A stretch of DNA of 64,000 nt from Marsupella aquatica (GCA_973895155.1 OZ316896.1:17038754-17102753), one strand, 5' to 3'; counted from the stretch's first letter, positions 45,200-60,960 are shown. Notes: generated by a model from the sequence alone, not told the origin. Program-made: numbers and translations.

Positions 45200-48100
45200 A
45201 TGGCTCAAGGGGGCTCTTCTAGTCGCACTCAAACTCCAGAGCCCTCCAATAACGCAATTACTCGGGTATCTTACGGCATTGACCTCGATCTGAACCTGTC
45301 TGGATATGCCCGTTGTGTTTAGAGATTGATCGTTTTGACAATATGCAGCCTGAAGGTCTATCTCAATCATGAGTATTTTGATATTGATCGATTTCTGCAA
45401 GTTTTCAGTTTTGTGTTGCATCCAATCTCAGTCCTATACAGCTAATTTCTATGCCTACTGTATGTTGGCGTGCTTAGGTTTTACAGCTTAATGAATCCCT
45501 CTTTGAGCTTCACAAACCAAAAGGGCGACCTAGCATGGTGGTCTTGTTTTTTCATGGCTTTCAGAATGGAAATTATGAAAATGCCCATATATCAACATGG
45601 AAAACTGAGCATGGACGAGAGGATGGATCATCCACATGGCTCCAGACTTGGTTGGTTGATGACGACCAGCACCCAGACGCTCACATCCTTTCTGTTGCAT
45701 ATAATGCTAGCTTGATGAAAAGCAAGAAAGAAGGAAGCTTTGACCTCTACATCATAGGGGAAAATATTATTTCAGATTTGCTAGAGGCAAATATTGCGCA
45801 AGGTCCCCGCTGTCCCATAGTATTGGTAGGACACAGTTTTGGGGGCCTCGTGGTGAAGGAACTGTGTGTTCAAGCACATAAGAGAGGCAGTATGGGTAGC
45901 TCCAAGCACAAAAACTTTCTGGAAAATATCAAGGGGGCATTTTTCTATTCCACCCCTCATCATGGGATTTCAGGAGAAATTTCGGAGTATTTTGTGAGCA
46001 AAACAAATCAACCCTTGTTGAATTATGTGAAAGTCCTGAGTACGTCTGCAGCAAGATTGCATGAAGATTTCGACAAGGTGCGAAAGCAGTGTGCTTGGCA
46101 GTCGGCAGGAGTAGGAGAAGGATTACCCACCCATCTGGTACTGGCATTCTCTCTCAATCTTATTAAATGGAAATATATGAAGATCTCTGATAGCTTCCAA
46201 TCACTTCTAAATCGAAGCAATGATCAGATATTAAATACTTACACCACGATACAATACTGTTCTAGATTGTTGACTAATTTGTTTCAATTCATTCCATAGA
46301 ACCCGCCATAGTACTGATAGAAGAAGGCAATGCGCAGTAACAATTTCTTTGCGAAGTGCAACTCTATGGATGCAATTTTGTTTAGTACTCAGTCATCTAA
46401 GTAGCATGTAACCGAGCTGCTAAAGAGTAATTTGTGTGAAGGATATAGTAGATACTTCCTTCATTGGATCTTGGTTGTTTGCTTGCTTGTATGTGCACAG
46501 AACTTATTAAAAACACAGATAATTGTACCAGAAGGATCGTCAAGATATGGAGACACCTTTGCTATGGTGCCAGAAGCTGATCACTTATCAATCTGCCGGC
46601 CAATATTAAAAATCTCAAGACCATTCAAGTCCTTGTCCAGCTTCCTGCACGGAGTTTGCGTTATGTGGAAGGTGAAGTCAAACTCTAGCTCGAATTTGTG
46701 GTGTGTTCATAATTGATGGTGGTTGTCTGTCAAATTATATCTGACATCGTTCCCAGCTCAACTGGATGAACCAATTCGATCTGTGAACAACACCTTAGAG
46801 GACATCATCAAAATGTGAAGGAGGCTATAGAACTAAAAACTCGTGTGCAACAGGATGCCGACCTTCAACCGATCCCAACAAGAATTTTCGACATCGATGA
46901 CCTTTATGTTCCTATTGTGGAGGTACAGAATGCTGTCATCGCAGCAATCGAAAAATTGGATGGTCCTCGGATAGTATTGTTGCATGGTGGTGTAGGCAAA
47001 GGGAAATGTGGTGTGCCAGATATGTGCATATGATATATCAAAACAGAAAAGAAGTGTTTCAGTATGTGCTCCTAGTCGATTGTGCAGGTAGCTCCAAACT
47101 TGATCCTTCGAACAAGCAGTATGAGATCTTGAGGAGGCTTTCCCCCGCCAGCTTAACCACTAATCCAGAGAAAGAAAGGAGTGACTTTAAATTAAGGATT
47201 GCAAAATCCCTCCACGAGTTTTTTTTGAGTGGCAGCAAGATCCTAATCATCCTGGACGGTGTGTCAGACCGTCGATTTATAGATGAGATGTTGAAAGCTT
47301 CTCAAGGTGGTACACAAGTGAAGTACTTGGTTACCTCACAATATCCCAATTTGTGTCACAGCTGTAGGAATTACTCTTTCCCTGTTTACATGTGTGATCC
47401 CAAACATGATGAGGCGAAGACGATACTGGCGACCCTTGTTGGACTGAAGGACAACGTAATTCCTCAAAAGTTACAGGTCCGTTTCGGAAAATCAGTTTCA
47501 GACCTTTTGTTGGTTTGCTCCTTATCACGTTCAGAGTTTACATTGGACTATACAATTCACAACAGTGCTGGAATTCCTACTTCATTTTTGTGCAGTATTG
47601 AATCATTTAACAAGTTACTTAGTATATATCAAAGCCTCTATATGAATATTGTTTTTGCAGCGTTTAACTAGTACTGCATCATTTTCTTTGGCATGCAGCG
47701 CATTGCAGATCAGATGATAACGGCTACAGGTGGCAACCCATTAGCTCTAGCATCTTTGGCGAGTAATTTTGTTAACAACCAAGACAAGACAGATGTGCGT
47801 GCATGGAATGAAGCCTACAAAGCACTATGTCAGATACTTCGCGATCCAGAGAAAATACTTGTCCTTGGGGGCACTTCTGATGATACTCCGCCAAGAAGTC
47901 TTTGGGCTGCCATGAAACTCTGTATTGATTACTTGGAGAGCCGTGATGCCAAAGATATTTTGTTCTTGATGTACGCCTGTGAAGGAGAATCAGTCCCAGA
48001 GGAGGTGTTAAGAATTATGCATGCTACTGCAAAGACTTCGGGTGGCATGTTTTCCAAGTCAATTGCAGAATTATGGTCTAGGGACCTCTTGAAAGCCAGT

Positions 48101-51100
48101 ACTAATACTATAGCAGCCAAGCTGAATTTTGATAGTAAGCACCAAATAAGTTCCAAGTCATGGTCCATGTTGACTACACTGAAGCTCTACATTGACCAGC
48201 GTATGGCTAGTGACCAGGAAATGAGGTCCTTATTCAGTTTTTTGCAAGGGGAAGGTGAGATTAAAGCTTCTTCTAGTGTCAAACATGAACGGGGCTCCGA
48301 AGCAGAACCAATGGTGAACGGGAAGAACAAAGTGGCAATCGCTCTGTGTGCATTGTATTTCGATGGAGATCATACTGATAAAGTTGTGAAAGAAGCTGCA
48401 ACTTGGGCTTGCGGAGCATCACATATGAACGACTGGAATGCTACAATCAAAGAGCGGAGACGAAAGGCCATTGAGCCCCTAATCTGGTTGCTGGACCAGA
48501 CAGAAGAAGACGACCCTACATGGAGAGAATCACATCTCCAGTGTCTGAGACAGGTACCTCTGGCTGCCCTTAAGTGTTAATTTTTTTCTTCCACTATCGA
48601 CTTTCACGCAATACACAAGTCATTTCTGCATGTTGTTAGCTTACCGTATTGAATTTGTTGGAACTAATGTTTTCACTAGGGCTTACGTTCTGTAAGGGTT
48701 GAGTAACAGAATGTCTTATGCATTGTATATGTGGCATGATGCTGATCATATTTCCGTGACCGCGATCAAAACTCTAAAACCACAATAATGGCTTTCAGAA
48801 ATTCGTCAAAGAACAGCACGCACTTCTCTCCGGAGCACTTCAGCTCCGGCTGAGCTATCTTACTGGGTTTACTGCAAAAAAGACAGAAATGAGTGAATTC
48901 GTGCTCGCGTCAATCAAATTGGCCTCAATGGAGTTTCCTGAAATTCTTCTGTACATTACAGTTTGCCTTATTTCCAAACGACAGGAATTTGAACCATCGA
49001 GATTCCAACAATAGAATCTCCGTCCCCATGTACAGCTTGTATGAATTTTATTTTGTTTCATGATTCCAGGTATTTCTGAGGTACATTTGTTTCAGCGAGC
49101 TTGATGACAGCAACATCTGTATCCTGTTGAAGCTGACCAGTTGCCCATCAGCACAGCTGGCAATGCTCGTCGCTCTTGCCGACATTCTTGACATCGAAGA
49201 AATACCTTTGCTAAAAAGTGATAGTCTGACTTTCTTGCAACCACTAGCGCACATTTTGAAATCGAATGCAGATTTGAATTCAAATATTCAAGTCGCTGCC
49301 TGGGAAGCACTAGATAAAGTTACTCAGAAATCTACTCGGGAAAGGCAATCCGATTCTATCGTAACAAGCACGCCAGATCTTTTGACCACATTGCAACGCT
49401 CTCTCCAAGATTCAGATGCGCGTGCAACAAAGGCTGCATTGATTTTGGCTCGCTTGTCATATGCCGGATATGAAATTGGCAACCACATTCTCACTGAAAA
49501 TGGGGCTGGGTTGCTCAGAAGCCTTGTGAAGGCTCTGTCAAAGGACCACAATCCCAAATTCCAACAACGGGCAGTGCATGCGATGGCCAATCTAGCTGCA
49601 GGAGGGGAGTCTGTGAAACTGCGAATTTTGGGTGCAGATGGGGCACTTGCAGGCTTGGTCAAGTGTCTCTCCAACGACCAGAACCCAGAAGTACAGGAAT
49701 ATGCTGCATGGACTTTAAAATATCTAGCTTTTGGACAGGAGACATTGAAGCTCAAAGTTTTGGGCGAAGATGGGGCGCTGGAGGGCCTGGTGGGGGCTTT
49801 GTCAAAGGACGGGAATCCCGAATTGCAAAAACGGGCAGCGGGGGCGTTGCGCAATCTAGCTGCAGGAGGGGAGTCTGTGAAACTGCGAATTTTGGGTGCA
49901 GATGGGGCACTTGCAGGCTTGGTCAAGTGTCTCTCCAACGACCAGAACCCAGAAGTACAGGAATATGCTGCATGGACTTTAAAAAATCTAGCTTTTGGAC
50001 AGGAGACATTGAAGCTCAAAGTTTTGGGCGAAGATGGGGCGCTGGAGGGCCTGGTGGGGGCTTTGTCAAAGGACGGGAATCCCGAATTGCAAAAACGGGC
50101 AGCGGGGGCGTTGCGCAATCTAGCTGCAGGAGGGGAGTCTGTGAAACTGCGAATTTTGGGTGCAGATGGGGCACTTGCAGGCTTGGTCAAGTGTCTCTCC
50201 AACGACCAGAACCCAGAAGTACAGGAATATGCTGCATGGACTTTAAAAAATCTAGCTTTTGGACAGAAGACATTGAAGCTCAAAGTTTTGGGCGAAGATG
50301 GGGCGCTGGAGGGCCTGGTGGGGGCTTTGTCAAAGGACGGGAATCCCGAATTGCAAAAACAGTCGGCGATGGCGTTGCGCAATCTAGCTGCAGGAGGGGA
50401 GTCTGTGAAACTGCGAATTTTGGGTGCAGATGGGGCACTTGCAGGCTTGGTCAAGTGTCTCTCCAACGACCAGAACCCAGAAGTACAGGAATATGCTGCA
50501 TGGACTTTAAAATATCTAGCTTGACAGGAGACATTGAAGCTCAAAGTTTTGGGCGAAGATGGGGCGCTGGAGGGCCTGGTGGGGGCTTTGTCAAAGGACG
50601 GGAATCCCGAATTGCAAAAACGGGCAGCGGGGGCGTTGCGCAATCTAGCTGCAGGAGGGGAGTCTGTGAAACTGCGAATTTTGGGTGCAGATGGGGCACT
50701 TGCAGGCTTGGTCAAGTGTCTCTCCAACGACCAGAACCCAGAAGTACAGGAATATGCTGCATGGACTTTAAAAAATCTAGCTTTTGGACAGAAGACATTG
50801 AAGCTCAAAGTTTTGGGCGAAGATGGGGCGCTGGAGGGCCTGGTGGGGGCTTTGTCAAAGGACGGGAATCCCGAATTGCAAAAACGGGCAGCGGGGGCGT
50901 TGGGGAATCTAGCTGCAGGAGGGGAGTCTGTGAAACTGCGAATTTTGGGTGCAGATGGGGCACTTGCAGGCTTGGTCAAGTGTCTCTCCGACGACCAGAA
51001 CCCAAAAGTACAGGAATATGCTGCATGGACTTTAAATAATCTAGCTTTTGGACAGGAGACATTGAAGCTCAAAGTTTTGGGCGAAGATGGGGCGCTGGAG

Positions 51101-52648
51101 GGCCTGGTGGGGGCTTTGTCAAAGGACGGGAATCCCGAATTGCAAAAACAGTCGGCGATGGCGTTGCGCAATCTAGCTGCAGGAGGGGAGTCTGTGAAAC
51201 TGCGAATTTTGGGTGCAGATGGGGCACTTGCAGGCTTGGTCAAGTGTCTCTCCAACGACCAGAACCCAGAAGTACAGGAATATGCTGCATGGACTTTAGA
51301 AAATCTAGCTTTTGGACAGGAGACATTGAAGCTCAAAGTTTTGGGCGAAGATGGGGCGCTGGAGGGCCTGGTGGGGGCTTTGTCAAAGGACGGGAATCCC
51401 GAATTGCAAAAACGGGCAGCGGGGGCGTTGGGGAATCTAGCTGCAGGAGGGGAGTCTGTGAAACTGCGAATTTTGGGTGCAGATGGGGCACTTGCAGGCT
51501 TGGTCAAGTGTCTCTCCAACGACCAGAACCCAGAAGTACAGGAATATGCTGCATGGACTTTAAAATATCTAGCTTTTGGACAGGAGACATTGAAGCTCAA
51601 AGTTTTGGGCGAAGATGGGGCGCTGGAGGGCCTGGTGGGGGCTTTGTCAAAGGACGGGAATCCCGAATTGCAAAAACGGGCAGCGGGGGCGTTGGGGAAT
51701 CTAGCTGCAGGAGGGGAGTCTGTGAAACTGCGAATTTTGGGTGCAGATGGGGCACTTGCAGGCTTGGTCAAGTGTCTCTCCAACGACCAGAACCCAGAAG
51801 TACAGGAATATGCTGCATGGACTTTAAAAAATCTAGCTTTTGGACAGAAGACATTGAAGCTCAAAGTTTTGGGCGAAGATGGGGCGCTGGAGGGCCTGGT
51901 GGGGGCTTTGTCAAAGGACGGGAATCCCGAATTGCAAAAACAGTCGGCGATGGCGTTGCGCAATCTAGCTGCAGGAGGGGAGTCTGTGAAACTGCGAATT
52001 TTGGGTGCAGATGGGGCACTTGCAGGCTTGGTCAAGTGTCTCTCCAACGACCAGAACCCAGAAGTACAGGAATATGCTGCATGGACTTTAAAAAATCTAG
52101 CTTTTGGACAGGAGACATTGAAGCTCAAAGTTTTGGGCGAAGATGGGGCGCTGGAGGGCCTGGTGGGGGCTTTGTCAAACGACGGGAATCCCGAATTGCA
52201 AAAACAGTCGGCGATGGCGTTGCGCAATCTAGCTGCAGGAGGGGAGTCTGTGAAACTGCGAATTTTGGGTGCAGATGGGGCACTTGCAGGCTTGGTCAAG
52301 TGTCTCTCCAACGACCAGAACCCAGAAGTACAGGAATATGCTGCATGGACTTTAAATAATCTAGCTTTTGGACAGGAGACATTGAAGCTCAAAGTTTTGG
52401 GCGAAGATGGGGCGCTGGAGGGCCTGGTGGGGGCTTTGTCAAAGGACGGGAATCCCGAATTGCAAAAACAGTCGGCGATGGCGTTGGGGAATCTAGCTGC
52501 AGGAGGGGACTCAATTAAACTCACAATTGTGAACAAGGAAGGGGCAATTGCAGGCCTGCTTAGGGCTTACTCGGAAGTCAACAAACCTCTTTTGCAGAAA
52601 TACGCCGCGTTGGCATTGGTCAAATTGGCACATACACTAGACCCATAA
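45200..52648 (+). CDS. NLR/STAND-like protein: alpha/beta hydrolase + NB-ARC-like NTPase + armadillo-repeat array; interrupted by a frameshift and an in-frame stop in this sequence
   Basis: Predicted exons 45200-45265, 45487-46137, 46501-46671, ~46854-47476, 47699-48553 and 49070-52648. Hydrolase: VLFFHG, ILSVAYNAS, IVLVGHSFGG, FFYSTPHHG, ADHLSICRP. NB-ARC: Walker A HGGVGKGK, Walker B-like ILIILDGV, RNBS-B-like KYLVTS, GLPL-like GGNPLAL. Then ARM repeats. Frameshift at ~47007; TGA at 50522-50524. Confidence 0.85.
49589..52510 (+). repeat. Coding tandem array: 11 x 264-bp units, each encoding two 44-aa armadillo repeats
   Basis: Unit starts (aatctagctgcagg) at 49589, 49853, 50117, 50381, 50642, 50906, 51170, 51434, 51698, 51962 and 52226, with a partial unit at 52490. 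ARM signature GAL..LV..L....P.VQ..AAW.L.NLA. Confidence 0.97.
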
Positions 52649-54222
52649 ATCAAGATTAAAGCGAGGTCCGAGGTGGTCTGGTTGGATGCTCTGACCAAGT
52701 CTGCTGCCATGGGTGAAAATGAGTTTCGAAAAGAAGCACAACTGGCTTTGAAGAATCTTGAGGTAGATAAGCGTTATGGCTTGAAATTTTGGCAGAAATA
52801 CCTTTAAGACTGGGCTCATGGAGACCAACTAGAGCAAAGGTATCCAACAATTTAAGTGGCATGGTTTTGCTATTTCAGAAGCGTGGAATTTCTCAGTCCG
52901 GAAGGATTGGTCTAAGGTCCAACTCCCGTGCAAGGTTGAACGCAAGATTGGATTTGTCAGTCATATGAAGGACAATTGTCCATATATAGTCACCGCAAAT
53001 GCTTGAAGATCCATGACCTGGGCTTACTGTTCACTTTTCTCAAACCTTCAGGTACTCGCGTTAGTCTCCCAAGCTTGAGAACGCCAAGACTGATTCAAGC
53101 ATCTGGTAGCAAGTAGCTAAATTTGTTCTGAACAAGGTTTATACAGGGAATGCTGGAGCACCAGGGTGTCTAGACAATTGTGCCTGTTTACCGATCAAGT
53201 AGACCCAGAATTGATGGATACATCAGACACATCAGATTCAGATTACCCCATGTTGGTGCCGCACCTTGTTAAATGTCGCCTCTCGCATTGCTCGTACACC
53301 ACACGCCCAGCTACCTATATGTGTGATGAAGTTCCTTGCTCAGAAAGTCCTTGCTTCTTTGGCTAAACCGGCTGGTTGCTTAGACTTTTCCGCTCAAGTG
53401 CTCCTCGTATTTTCTCCTTTCACTGGCAAGCTCACTTTCCTGCTTGTCCTGTCTGTAACTTCCCCGATTTGGCATTCCGTAGAATTGGAAATTCATTCAC
53501 TCTCGGTTGTCCATTGCTGACAGCCATGTCAGAAGTTTGAAAGGATACTCAGGAGAATGTCACAAAGCTCACATGGTGCACGATTCTGTCGGCCTCAAAA
53601 GGTCAGTACGTTTTCTGTTAGTACTTTGCAGAACTCTGTGTCTTATTTTTTGGGTGGTAATTTACCTTCCATGGATCAATGTTGGGTTTGCCATTCAACG
53701 GATCTTGATCGTTTTGATCATATTCTAGTTCTTATAATTCATCATCTGTCATTGATCTGAAGGACTTCACAAACCCACAGACTAGTTATATTTGTATGCT
53801 CTAGCTGATGTGAATGATCTATTGGATGTGGTGGTTGCCAGTCAGACAATGTTGAGCTTACAACAGGATTTAGTATTTTCTGATGGGGACTCAACCTTAA
53901 TTATGTAACGCTGCCAAAGGAACAAAAAAGTACAATAAGCTTGAATATATCAGAGTGCCAAAGAACAAAAGCTCCAAACGTAGATACCTTAAAAATATAT
54001 ATATTTCCTGCCAAAGAACAAACAACTCCAAAGTTAGAGATAGGAAGTGAAAAGCAGGGGTCCCAACAAGGGGGCAAAGGGAGGGAAAAAAGGGAGAAAA
54101 AAGCCCTGGGAAGACCACCAAGTGAATTCAAAAACCATCCATTATTACATGAGATCTAAGGCGCTACTCAACTGTAAACTGAAAAGCCCATGTCTTCCCC
54201 CAATTCCATTTCCGATCACAAT

Positions 54223-54940: not shown

Positions 54941-55687
54941 CTATGAAGAAGGTCCAGGTGCAGGAGAATGAGGAGAGGCAATAGGTGTGTAGTTGGGCGT
55001 GCTAGTGTCGATGGGTATGAGAAGAGTGCTTGCCGAATCAATACCCGATCCTCCCAAAGTATTGGCGTTGATGACGGAGTCTTCAGGCACTCCAAAGCTT
55101 TGGGCAATACTATACAATATATCCCCAGGCGCTATGGGATAAGTGACTAGATTCTGCACAGTAGCATTGTGCTGGGCAGCACTCGGGCATGCGCAACGCA
55201 AAGGGACGATAATGGGCAAGCCAACGACCAGATAGTTGGAGTCCACTGTAGGATTCGCATCGATCATTGCTTGGGTGGTGCTCAAATACTCGAAAGTGTT
55301 CTCACTCAGGTCGTAGAAAGTGTCCCCGCTCCCTATGATGTAAGTCAAATTGGCGTAAGACGTCTGATTGAAGCAGATGCAGATGAGAGGTATTATCAGG
55401 GGTTGCCCACTCGTCAACGAGCTGTTCGCCGACAATTTGTTCAGAGTGGCCAGCTCCTGTGGATCAGTGTTAAAGAGCGATCCTATGGAAATAATGTCGC
55501 TGTAGCCCGTCCGAGCTCTGTAGAGTGCAAATGCACCACACTTGTTCGTTCCCAAATCTGAGCACAAGTAAGTGGTGCCACGGTAAGCCTGCTGGGCACT
55601 GGTCCTGTGATCTTCGAGTCCTATCACCAAAATCAGAAGAACAAGTAGGAAATGACGGCAGAGACTCCTAACGTCGGACTTTTCCAT
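54941..55687 (-). CDS. Secreted LysM-domain protein (LYK4/5/LYR-type ectodomain only, no TM or kinase)
   Basis: 248-aa single-exon ORF: signal peptide, YLCS...CGAFALYRA, and three LysM-like modules separated by CIC and CAC motifs (YIIGSGDTFYDLS, TYPIAPGDILYSIAQSFGV). It ends in a Pro/Ser linker followed by a stop. Confidence 0.88.
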   Translation of the reverse strand: MEKSDVRSLCRHFLLVLLILVIGLEDHRTSAQQAYRGTTYLCSDLGTNKCGAFALYRARTGYSDIISIGSLFNTDPQELATLNKLSANSSLTSGQPLIIPLICICFNQTSYANLTYIIGSGDTFYDLSENTFEYLSTTQAMIDANPTVDSNYLVVGLPIIVPLRCACPSAAQHNATVQNLVTYPIAPGDILYSIAQSFGVPEDSVINANTLGGSGIDSASTLLIPIDTSTPNYTPIASPHSPAPGPSS

Positions 55688-56746
55688 AGCTACAAGAGTC
55701 CCTGGGAAAGTCCTTCACAAGCACCCCCAAGAAAAATGCTTTAGGCGTAATTCTCTCACTACAAAGAGGCAATAATTTCCTGTCCACGGCGATGCTCCCT
55801 GATTGGACTCAAAACATCGTCCCCAAGCTGGATCACTAAGCAGTGCACACTCCCTGCTCCGTGTTATTCCGTCCTCTTCCGACTCACCACCAATAGCAGC
55901 ATCACGAGTCACTGCAGTTTCCAACGTCCTCACCAACACTGCTTCGTCCCGGCTATTTAACCTTCCGAACAGATCAAGACGGTCCCACCTTTCAGCAGAG
56001 ATGACGAACTCTGAAAGAACTCAACGACTTCCGCAAGATCTCGAAAGAGTCCGCTGGCCCTCCGGAGCATTCCTCTGACGAGAATCAGAACAGGACACAG
56101 CTCAAAGAAAGACCGAGGTCAGCGAGAGGAAATATCGATGGAGTTATTGTCGAAAATGAGTATGATTCCTTCTTTGCAGCAAAAAGGCTATGTCCCCTAC
56201 AAGAAGTCCCCGGGTTCTAGATAGGGAACCTCTTTTCCTGCTCCAATCCCAATCAGATGCTGTTTCCCTCCTTTTCCCCCACCTTTGCTTCAAGACCGAA
56301 GTAGGCAACGAAGGAAGGCAAGAGTAACCAAAGCAAGGATATCTATCACCCGCACTTCCGGACCAATGCGACGTTCTTACAGCTAACTCTCATAGAACTG
56401 ATCTTTCCTCGTCCTTCACATGAAATCACGCCCGTGCTTCCTGCTCCTATTCCACTCCAGTCAATTAAAAGTTGCTATCCCCCTTCTTTCCCCACCTTTG
56501 AGTCAACACTACAGCTGGCAAGGCAGCAATGCAAGAGTAAGCAAAGCAAGGGCATGAATGCAACGAACATAGAGCTAACACGCAGACGTCCTTCACGTAA
56601 AATCATGCCCTTAGCTTCCTGCTCCAATTCCAATCAGTTCCCGTTGCTGTTCCCCCTCTTTCTCCACCTTTGTGCCACACTACAGCACTGCAGTAGGGAA
56701 GGAACTAAGGATGTAAGGAAGGCAATGAGACTAACACCCACAGTTA

Positions 56747-57556
56747 CACGCGATTGCAACGCAACGCGCATAGAGAGAGCTAGCATGATCAGCAGCAGCC
56801 ACCTCACTCCCAGCAATCTACAAAGCATGAAGCTTCCAACTAGGAAATGAATCCCCCACGCGATTGCAACGCAACGCGCATAGAGAGAGCTAGCATGATC
56901 AGCAGCAGCCACCTCACTCCCAGCAATCTACAAAGCATGAAGCTTCCAACTAGGAAATGAATCCCCCAGTTTCCATTTTTCTACTATGCAAGTCTGCATA
57001 AAAGGGCGTACAAAAACCCTGAATGAGGTTAGTCCTCAAAAGGCGGACGTCAGCCACCCAAAGTTTTTTTTGCCTTGATTACCAAAGCTGACCCATTCAA
57101 CAGAGGATAGACTATTTTTTTGTGCCTTGAATACCAAAACTGACCCAGCCAGCCACCCAAAGTTTTTTTTGCCTTGAATACCAAAGCTCACCCATTCAAC
57201 AGAGGATAGACTATTTTTTTGTGCCTTGAATACCAAAACTGACCCATCCGACGATCAACTCAGGAGCATGCACCTCTCAGGAGGGTAGCCCACAAGGGGG
57301 GTCATAAGGAGCATGCACCTCTCAGGAGGGTAGCCCACAAGGGGGGTCATACCCAGTACCAGGAAGGAGAGAGGGTTGGACCAGAGCCCCAAAGCGGACT
57401 AGCTAAGGGGTTCAGCCACCTAACTTCATCCTCTGTGCCCTTGCTGGGATACGGTCTTTGCTAGTTGATAACCCCAAAGCGGACTAGCTAAGGGGTTCAG
57501 CCACCTAACTTCATCCTCTGTGCCCTTGCTGGGATACGGTCTTTGCTAGTTGATAA
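56747..57556. repeat. Four adjacent, mutually unrelated near-perfect tandem duplications (~110, ~99, ~45, ~85 bp)
   Basis: 56747-56968, 57051-57247, 57263-57351 and 57387-57556 are each a two-copy direct repeat. Confidence 0.9.
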
Positions 57557-58276: not shown

Positions 58277-60178
58277 CTAGCTTGGGAGAGAAAGAAAGAA
58301 GATGTAAGAGGGTGACCCATCTTCATCCGGGTCACAGGTATCAGAAGCTTGAAATCTCGCAAATAACAGAGATGCCAAAGAGTGCATTAAGGAAGGAGAA
58401 TTGCCCTCGCTACCAGCAGCCGGTTGTTGGGCATTTGTCATCAGGAGCTCAAATGCATGCGAACCTGTTCTTCCCTTTAGTGAGGCTATGCTCGCACCTG
58501 TGAGTAAATACTTATCTGCAGGGTCCTTTGAACCGTCTTTATATATCAGCCACTTCACCATCATTTTCCCATCTTGAGTTGCTTTGAGGGCCTCAATGGC
58601 TGTCTTCGATATACCAAATCCTTTGAGCAGAAAGATAGAAATTTCCTTCGAAACCACGACAGCTTTCACCAGCTTCACCGACAAACCAAGCCCACCAGCT
58701 GCCCCTTTCAAGGCTGCGAACCCTTGTCCAACCAGGCCAATCATCCCCCCACCTTTCAATCCTAGTACAGCTTCAAAAACCTTTAGAATACCATTTGTCA
58801 AATCATAGCTCTTGCTCACTAAATCCCAATTAGTAAGCCCACCTTGGAGATTGCCTCCCAGTCCAGCCCCAAACTCCTTCGTCAATCTTACCAGAGTGAG
58901 AGCCCCATCGGACGCCTTCAGACCCTTCAAAAGTGTCTCTCTTCTAGCTTTACCTGCAGCTGCATTGATGTCAGCTTTACTGAACATTCCAATATGGGTT
59001 CTAGTAGATTTCCACACACTAGCAAAGTCTTTGGAGATCTTCCCCGCTTTCACAATCATCCTGGCTGTTTCAAATCCTAAGACTACGCCATTGGCAGCTC
59101 CAAATCCTATGAGAACGCCACCAGCAGGAGCCTGGAACTTTTGGATCACACCGGTGGCAGTCTTCACCCCGCTCACAACACCAGTGGCCATCTTCACGCT
59201 CTTCATAAATCCCTTCATTGGTTTCAGTTGATTTGAAATGCTATCGACCGCTCCTAGTCCTGTCCCTGCAAGCGTTCTGTTTGTCATTCCGTCACTGAGC
59301 TTACTCGAAAGGGCGCCATCTGCCGGTATTCTGGATTCTCCAATTGCTATCCCACTAGCGGCACTACTGCCTTCTCGAAGGAAGGATCCGTTTACCCCTT
59401 CAGCAGGGGTTAGTGAGCCTGTTGTTGTTGGACTGCCAGATATGTTCATATCTCCAAATTTGGTGCCATCTCCGCTCCCACGTGGAGTCCCGTTGGCCCC
59501 AGCATTCTCTGCAGTGGCTCCATTCCCACCTGGAGTCCCTTCGATTCCGTTGCTCTCAACCCTGCCAGTAGTTGCTGCTCCTGTCCTGGCTTGAGGTCCT
59601 TTAATCCCTTTTCCCTCAGCATTGCCCGTAAGTGCTCCATTGCCACCTTCAGACCATTTGCTCCCTCTGCATTCACGACTGTTGCCTGATGTTCCTCCAC
59701 TCCATGCCCCCTTTCCTTCCAGATTTCCTTCTCCTCCTCTGATGTTGCCGACGTTATCTCCTGTACACCTGGCTCGTCGTCCAGCTCCTATTCCTCTGCC
59801 ATTTCTGACCCCACCTCCACCACTTCTTCCTCCTAAGGACTTTCCCAAACTTAATCTACAACTACTAGTAGGAGTTCCGATTCTCCCTACTTTTCCACCA
59901 CCACTACCAGGCCCCCACCTACTACTATTACTACACCTCCCACCGGCAGTTCCATCGCCAAACATGCCTCCATCGTCCCGGGAAAAATCCATGTCTTTCA
60001 AGGCTCGGGTGGTGGATCTGAAACCCTTCATCATCATATAGCTGAATTGCAATCTCCTAAGCACGTTGAGAGCCAAGCCCTCGAATCCCATGATTCCTTT
60101 CTCTGCTGCTGGTTCGGGCCCGGGAGCAAAGAAGAAGCTGCCACCCATCCCATTTGGGGGATTGCCGAGGAGCCCCAT
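58277..60178 (-). CDS. Hypothetical protein: Gly-rich disordered N-half, Gly/Ala-rich amphipathic/hydrophobic C-half
   Basis: Uninterrupted ~1.9-kb ORF (track 58277-60211). The in-register plus-strand frame is broken by several stops. The start codon is uncertain (several ATGs from 60178 downward). No family recognised. Confidence 0.6.
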   Translation of the reverse strand: MGLLGNPPNGMGGSFFFAPGPEPAAEKGIMGFEGLALNVLRRLQFSYMMMKGFRSTTRALKDMDFSRDDGGMFGDGTAGGRCSNSSRWGPGSGGGKVGRIGTPTSSCRLSLGKSLGGRSGGGGVRNGRGIGAGRRARCTGDNVGNIRGGEGNLEGKGAWSGGTSGNSRECRGSKWSEGGNGALTGNAEGKGIKGPQARTGAATTGRVESNGIEGTPGGNGATAENAGANGTPRGSGDGTKFGDMNISGSPTTTGSLTPAEGVNGSFLREGSSAASGIAIGESRIPADGALSSKLSDGMTNRTLAGTGLGAVDSISNQLKPMKGFMKSVKMATGVVSGVKTATGVIQKFQAPAGGVLIGFGAANGVVLGFETARMIVKAGKISKDFASVWKSTRTHIGMFSKADINAAAGKARRETLLKGLKASDGALTLVRLTKEFGAGLGGNLQGGLTNWDLVSKSYDLTNGILKVFEAVLGLKGGGMIGLVGQGFAALKGAAGGLGLSVKLVKAVVVSKEISIFLLKGFGISKTAIEALKATQDGKMMVKWLIYKDGSKDPADKYLLTGASIASLKGRTGSHAFELLMTNAQQPAAGSEGNSPSLMHSLASLLFARFQASDTCDPDEDGSPSYIFFLSLPS

Positions 60179-60960
60179 CAACGAATGACAGGACCACTTT
60201 GACACGAGCACTGAATTACTGCTGACGCTGCCTGCGGAGAACAGAGCGATGATTAATCAATCGCCTCGACGATTCTGTACGTAGACCACCAGCCAAGAAA
60301 TGTACTGCCTTCCCTCTCTCTCTCTCTCTAGTGCAGAAGTAGGAGATTGGCGAAACCCTCTGGTACAGTATGTCAGCGACTGGCGGCACCAGCCCAGCCC
60401 TGAAACATTACGGTAGAATCCCGGGTTTTGCTTGGAATTTATGACAGTCGCATGTGCTGGGCTTCTAATACTCGGAGTTGCGTCTGAACTCCTTCAATTC
60501 GATTCCCTCGCATATAGGAGCGAATTGCTCTTTTTGGCCTCTTCAACTGTCTGTTTGTTTTGTGAGTTTGAGGGTCAAACCGCTTCCTCTTCAGTTCCCG
60601 TTGCTTCCGCCATCTCTCTCTCTTATCTGGTCTCTGCTCTTTCGACTGGATGGATCCGAAAATCTCGCAGTGACAGATTGCAGCTCCCAATAGCCAACTC
60701 GTGTTTCTTCGTTTCGCTAACTAGACTGTGCGATCGATAACTGGGGAGGAGTGTCTGTGACAGAGTGTTCCCGTTCTGTGACGGAGATTTGCTGCTCTTG
60801 GGAGTTTTTTTCTGGAGCTGGGCGATCCGATCGAGGTGCAGAGGGGTCTCGGGAGCAGCATCGAGTTAAAGGGTTTAGTCCATGAAAATTGTTTGGAGCT
60901 AGTAGTCTCAAGCAGGGATTAGGATAGCAACAGCAGGAGCAGCAACGAGAGGTGTCCGAG

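Follow-up and report, generated by a model that had tools for sequence, protein, structure and literature searches.

Among fungal NOD-like receptors (NLRs), those with high internal conservation (HIC NLRs) bear their signature in WD40, ANK, or TPR repeats; one form has the layout hydrolase/NB-ARC/TPR, and disrupted alleles are also found (PMC4986451, PMC12222747). HET-E-type receptors recognise allelic host proteins (PMC12222747). HIC NLR architectures have been reported in animals, plants, and bacteria in a survey restricted to repeats of the ANK, TPR, WD40, and LRR types, without HEAT-type solenoids (PMC13449251), in whose main text the terms Marchantia, bryophyte, and Calypogeia gave no match. 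NLRs with armadillo (ARM) tails are known in plants (PMC10586772, PMC12512272, PMC10030324), as illustrated by rice RLS1, a coiled-coil (CC)-NB-ARM protein with three ARM motifs in 1040 aa that is tied to cell death and resistance (PMC10030324, PMC12512272), and bryophyte hydrolase NLRs (Hyd-NLRs) have also been described (10.1101/2022.10.19.512840). Here, we analysed a 64,000-nucleotide stretch of Marsupella aquatica DNA (GCA_973895155.1 OZ316896.1:17038754-17102753; hereafter the window, whose positions are used throughout), which harbors an NLR-like gene with an array of near-identical ARM repeats. We consider that this gene probably represents the HET-E strategy with an ARM sensor, in which the scaffold is kept uniform by recombination that also reshuffles groove residues diversified by selection.

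The window gene shares with HET-E-type fungal NLRs a tripartite layout, near-identical sensor repeats, few hypervariable concave-face codons, shuffling, and frequently disrupted alleles, and fungal sesB is likewise an alpha/beta-hydrolase (PMC4986451, PMC12222747, PMC13449251). In contrast, its sensor is formed by ARM rather than WD40, TPR, or ANK repeats, each unit holds two repeats, and the host is a land plant. As in RLS1, ARM repeats follow the NB-ARC in place of LRRs; however, RLS1 has a CC domain, whereas the window gene has about 22 homogenised repeats, a hydrolase in front, and only a helical remnant. With Hyd-NLRs it shares an alpha/beta-hydrolase placed at the N-terminus ahead of the NB-ARC in a bryophyte, but it ends in ARM repeats instead of the C-terminal LRRs by which Hyd-NLRs are recognised. 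Designed armadillo repeat proteins (dArmRPs) similarly combine a consensus ARM scaffold with variable helix-3 pocket residues, and are among the top fold matches; nevertheless, they are engineered, and the modular peptide reading demonstrated for them is only predicted for the window family. Sensors with shuffled repeats have been studied thoroughly in fungi and have been noted in plants for the ANK, TPR, WD40, and LRR types; in the open-licence literature, we found no paper on homogenised, groove-variable ARM arrays or on a liverwort NLR family that carries them.

Unit variants and the predicted ARM groove

The homogenised array spans positions 49589 to 52489 (+) and comprises 11 units of 264 bp, each corresponding to two 44-aa ARM repeats. 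Tandem Repeats Finder placed it at 49531-52509 (period 264, 11.3 copies, 97% matches; the only such array call given), and the unit anchor was found 12 times, first at 49589 and last at 52490. Units cut at this anchor differed pairwise by 0 to 11 bases per 264 bp, and within-gene repeat identity thus exceeds the 80% that characterises HIC NLRs. A previous reading made from the sequence only had described 11 essentially identical 264-bp units. Their near-identity was confirmed, but unit 4 (50381-50641) has 261 bp, and its 3-bp deletion yields an in-frame TGA at 50522-50524 (+; ARM positions 40-41). Therefore, the 11 units do not form one open frame, and the TGA leaves the array exon with two open reading frames (ORFs), one of 486 codons and the other of 707.

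The variable residues listed in the sequence-only reading (KY, KN, NN, or EN; E or K; and RAAG or QSAM with R or G) matched exactly on recount, and so did its three singletons (N to D and E to K in unit 6, K to N in unit 10, at ARM positions 21, 26, and 21). Across the 11 units there are 14 variable nucleotide columns, two of which are synonymous third-position changes within replaced codons. The statement that no synonymous-only differences exist thus holds for codons, none of which differed only synonymously, but not for columns, and with 25 to 32% synonymous sites expected, the deficit of 2 in 14 is not significant (P 0.13-0.27). Counted per codon, the result was 0 of 10 (P 0.02-0.05), and per independent event 0 of 7 (P 0.07-0.13). 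The synonymous deficit is weak on its own and was dropped as support; the count of synonymous and nonsynonymous changes over the aligned units, which had been proposed as a check, was not significant overall, whereas a strong excess of replacements was specific to the groove, as described below.

The fold of units 6 to 10 was modelled with AlphaFold, resulting in a three-helix solenoid (pLDDT 81.9, pTM 0.79) that, by fold, best matches designed armadillo proteins and importin alpha. By sequence alignment, the W-x-x-x-N motif of the unit coincides with that of importin alpha, and in the armadillo numbering used here the Asn is position 37. One repeat has its shared variable codons at positions 36, 37, and 43, and the second repeat at 30, 31, 33, and 36; unit codons 44-45 and 82-88 sit in helix 3 of the model. 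The placement of variable residues in ARM helix 3, as previously implied, is supported for positions 30, 33, 36, and 37. ARM grooves read extended peptides at about two residues per repeat. The wider groove set, which we take to comprise positions 26, 36, 37, 40, and 41, was fixed ahead of the counts. [quoted passage not shown]

As seen in the window alone, five of the seven shared variable codons lie in the groove, which makes up 16 of the 88 unit codons (P 0.002). Groove replacements in the window numbered 8 in 38.7 sites, compared with 2 synonymous changes in 66 (ratio 6.9, P 0.007), and the scaffold replacement rate was 0.83 times the synonymous one. One unit was also compared with four runs (X1 to X4, of which X3 and X4 are labelled as a second organism), with 40 of the 42 variant rows counted and each base scored singly. 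The run variants absent from the window (n = 31) comprised 17 nonsynonymous and 0 synonymous changes in the groove and 7 of each elsewhere, giving ratios of 4.2 and 0.42; with the groove limited to positions 29, 30, 33, and 37, the run-variant ratio was 4.3. The X3 and X4 contigs have other residues at the same unit positions, where alleles and paralogs are not separable. The change N37Y, present in 3 of the 11 window units, also occurs in the relative P0001, suggesting a family allele rather than decay.

A similar distribution was observed in eight same-phase sets of repeats taken from five NB-ARC-ARM relatives in liverworts, after exclusion of border repeats and of a single P0043 repeat that carries an insertion. 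Diversity was 0.52 at groove, 0.16 at outer, and 0.10 at core positions; the groove was more variable than the outer face in all eight sets, and the eight groove positions coincide exactly with the eight most variable of the 34. On crude site-class counts rather than a codon model, the locus thus has the few hypervariable binding-face codons, likely under diversifying selection, that are typical of HIC NLRs.

Repeat shuffling, another HIC NLR property, was also evident in the array. On the shared variable sites, the 11 units fall into nine types, and all four gametes were found in 5 of the 10 within-unit site pairs, one of them only 8 bases apart, in agreement with the mosaic combinations noted previously. 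Neither a higher-order period in unit order across the array nor an exact duplicate of more than 396 bp within it was found. The mosaic implies recombination and, together with the lack of long exact repeats, fits gene conversion or unequal crossover rather than duplication by the assembler.

Probable selection on the groove and competing explanations

Unequal crossover and gene conversion likely keep the ARM array homogeneous in a liverwort family with hydrolase/NB-ARC/ARM architecture; selection likely diversifies the predicted groove residues, and reshuffling would give intact relatives new protein-recognition specificities. Beyond the observed sequence pattern, NLR and ARM biology lead us to infer that in intact copies the ARM groove would bind an extended peptide or protein surface, that binding would switch the NB-ARC to an ATP-bound oligomer, and that the N-terminal hydrolase or helical domain would then execute a defence or cell-death response. 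The copy in the window is a pseudogene, with the unit-4 stop, two frameshifts, and probably two more stops, and its variants would reflect selection that acted in the functional family, with shuffling that may have continued after the gene died.

Several observations weigh against selection as the origin of the pattern. The copy has as many as five lesions that break it, which leaves its array under no current protein-level selection, and it is not the intact gene with specificity-setting repeats expected of an HIC NLR. Alleles and paralogs are mixed among the run variants, which do not represent independent events, the RAAG/QSAM block contributes five changes to the counts although it is a single event, and the groove assignment combines an alignment with a numbering that is partly our assumption (positions 26, 36, 37, 40, and 41). 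Moreover, the eight repeat sets derive from five proteins of two species and are not independent, and 19 of the 24 family proteins longer than 450 aa lack a homogenised array. The idea of a recombination-diversified, modular peptide code in a plant receptor was upheld as to the NB-ARC host, the ARM fold, the groove bias, and the mosaic, but not as to a receptor that this copy could make, and the peptide "code" is deduced from position. It is conceivable, albeit on the unlikely side, that liverworts have natural modular ARM peptide binders in a multi-copy NB-ARC-ARM family, in which each unit would read a short target stretch through positions 29, 30, 33, 36, 37, and 40, and receptors would be reprogrammed by the exchange of units within and between loci, with dead copies such as this one as donors.

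Neutral turnover in a dead gene, with an array expanded and mixed by unequal crossover during or after pseudogenisation and variants that are relics of a few ancestral units without present meaning, is an unlikely explanation. It agrees with the distribution of disabling lesions, of which up to four fall in unique coding sequence and one in the array, with the few private changes among the 11 units, and with the nonsignificant synonymous deficit. Nevertheless, it leaves unexplained why variants occupy the groove in the window, among the run variants, and in relatives annotated as full-length, and the second-organism contigs keep the frame at both frameshift sites. Turnover could explain the unit order in this copy, yet the family would still need selection.

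Even less probable is that the groove varies because it is released from constraint or adapted to a partner within the host (in guarding, self/non-self recognition, or development), instead of reading pathogen peptides by a modular code. Relaxation alone predicts a ratio near 1, whereas groove ratios were 4 to 7, and the exposed outer positions stay conserved in the relatives; on the other hand, the replacement of N37 by Y in 3 of the 11 units would break regular main-chain binding. The recognition of allelic host proteins by HET-E-type receptors (PMC12222747) provides a precedent for a host partner, but such a target would alter the ligand only and leave the diversification mechanism unchanged.

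An assembly artefact in array length, unit order, or the unit-4 stop is highly improbable, although contig depth over the unit (about 6.2-6.4x single-copy in X1 and 7.4x in X2, which is not a copy number) is below the 8.4-10.5x predicted by 11 units, because that depth still indicates many copies, every 31-mer of the X1 contig path is present in the window array, long exact duplicates and a higher-order period are absent, the upstream lesions were matched letter for letter by run contigs, and relatives have such arrays. The unit-4 deletion was absent from the run contigs, which drop rare variants, so that this absence is not evidence against it. The 11-unit array is real, with the exact unit number and the unit-4 deletion taken from the assembly alone.

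The host gene, its lesions, and its liverwort relatives

The array lies in an NB-ARC gene that is NLR-like and belongs to a liverwort-type family, in agreement with the plant receptor host previously proposed. A probable coding exon 1 (45200-45265, +), inferred from the sequence and its three-frame translation, has its ATG at 45200 and a GT donor at 45266. Exon 2 (45478-46137, +) encodes an alpha/beta-hydrolase domain with a GHSFGG nucleophile elbow (Pfam DUF676, E 4.3e-06, above the cutoff) and 40% identity to the N-terminus of P0002 by tblastn. The frame of the hydrolase exons stays open as far as the first stop (45200-46716, +), and a hydrolase-only product of about 310 aa would be possible if transcribed. 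Exon 3 (46501-47476, +), with tblastn matches to P0001 and P0003 in three successive frames, holds the hydrolase end, a helical CC-like N-terminal remnant, and the P-loop and Walker B of the NB-ARC, together with lesions. The helical remnant lies between hydrolase and NB-ARC at 46670-46800 (+) and has 42% identity to residues 96-137 of P0001 (E 1.4e-07).

Exon 4 (47699-48553, +) encodes the second half of the NB-ARC (GNPLAL motif) followed by a helical domain; it has 61% identity to P0001 and served as the query for the family searches and the tree. Exon 5 starts with unique diverged ARM/HEAT repeats ahead of the array (49070-49588, +), as seen by profile and tblastn matches, and the last diverged ARM repeats follow it (52490-52807, +). 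There, the TAA at 52646-52648 is probably premature, and the likely original stop is at 52805-52807; similarity to the ARM repeats of P0001 goes on beyond the TAA, with in-frame tblastn matches that reach 52759-52789. The domain order is thus DUF676 hydrolase, NB-ARC, and ARM, with the STAND NTPase between effector and repeats as in HIC NLRs. The Pfam match of the NB-ARC is weak in the window (E 0.0015) and strong in the relatives. Among the 25 families listed for each array ORF, ARM/HEAT families lead, and no LRR was found.

The lesions upstream of the array are concentrated in exon 3. An in-frame TGA at 46714-46716 (+), where P0001 has R, is a probable nonsense lesion that splicing might bypass; the X1 and X2 contigs across it do not differ from the window. 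The tblastn alignment passes through three frames between 46672 and 47491, with a first frameshift at 46794-46803 (+) and a second at 47006-47014 (+), inside the P-loop, where the window is one base short by both tblastn and three-frame reading. In addition, the second Asp of Walker B is replaced by Gly (LDGV; 47258-47260, +), compared with LDDV in 7 of the 8 relatives examined and LDKL in the other. Since the X1 contig, which may come from the source sample, is identical to the window letter for letter over 46525-46925, the first stop and the first frameshift are not assembler errors. At the second frameshift, the extra base was found on contigs of all four runs, and leftover depth alone points to the short form in X1.

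The X3 and X4 contigs kept the frame at both frameshift sites, with indels at the first, and differed from the window by about 1 base in 368 to 549 over several pieces, suggesting that relatives with both frames intact likely exist. Over 46525-46925, these contigs differ by 7 or 8 bases plus indels, unlike nearby, which could correspond to a conversion tract or a close paralog. Since each of the four runs holds many contigs less than 99% alike, the family is multi-copy.

Among named proteins, the best relatives came from the leafy liverwort Calypogeia fissa, with a length of about 1500 aa and at most 61% identity over exon 4; of the ten longer relatives examined, six were from C. fissa, two from Marchantia paleacea, and one each from Riccia fluitans and R. 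sorocarpa, and proteins that combine NB-ARC and ARM occur in these species. A leafy liverwort is therefore the most likely source of the window. Homogenised arrays were found in 5 of the 24 family proteins longer than 450 aa, with periods of 135, 45, 45, 90, and 91 aa, equivalent to one, two, or three repeats. Because these periods differ, homogenisation appears to recur with different units. A midpoint-rooted FastTree tree covered 28 relatives out of 50 distinct ones, and those omitted were mostly short or matched weakly. In this tree, the sister of the window gene was P0001 (support 0.999, with P0008), whose unit comprises three repeats and whose N-terminus is helical. When the aligned repeats were inspected, the two-repeat unit of the window looked like a deletion derivative of the P0001 unit. 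The helical remnant behind the hydrolase suggests that the hydrolase was added ahead of an older helical effector domain, and, with a helical N-terminus in the nearest NB-ARC relative and the remnant kept here, points to a gain separate from that of Hyd-NLRs. The sisters P0002 and P0003 are also unlike in their N-termini and, together with the remnant, indicate that effector domains appear to be swapped within the family. TPR-like tails occur after or in place of the ARM repeats in P0002, P0003, P0005, P0007, and P0028, so that the sensor type also varies.

A search with the NB-ARC region of P0001 matched only P0001 and P0003, and neither RLS1, which is not in the tree, nor any protein named as a flowering-plant NB-ARM was present among the named matches. 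The discovery is the family, and the window locus is a dead example of lower direct value. Given the ARM groove reading, the family could offer an unusually decodable link between unit order and target, and its pocket residues would provide a natural library from which binders could be designed. Since the Marchantia paleacea member P0043 has a homogenised array, unit-swap tests would be feasible in a related liverwort.

In the remainder of the 64-kb window, ORF analysis and Pfam searches over selected further ORFs gave no convincing second NLR. A LysM receptor-like ORF of 257 aa (54941-55714, -), located about 2 kb away from the NLR-like gene, encodes a hydrophobic leader, three NFP/LYK-type LysM domains, and a Pro/Ser-rich end. 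Long open frames without a Pfam match lie on both strands at 58277-60256, Pro-rich on the plus strand, and short direct repeats, near-perfect and present in two copies each (periods 110, 99, 45, and 85 bp), cluster at 56747-57556.

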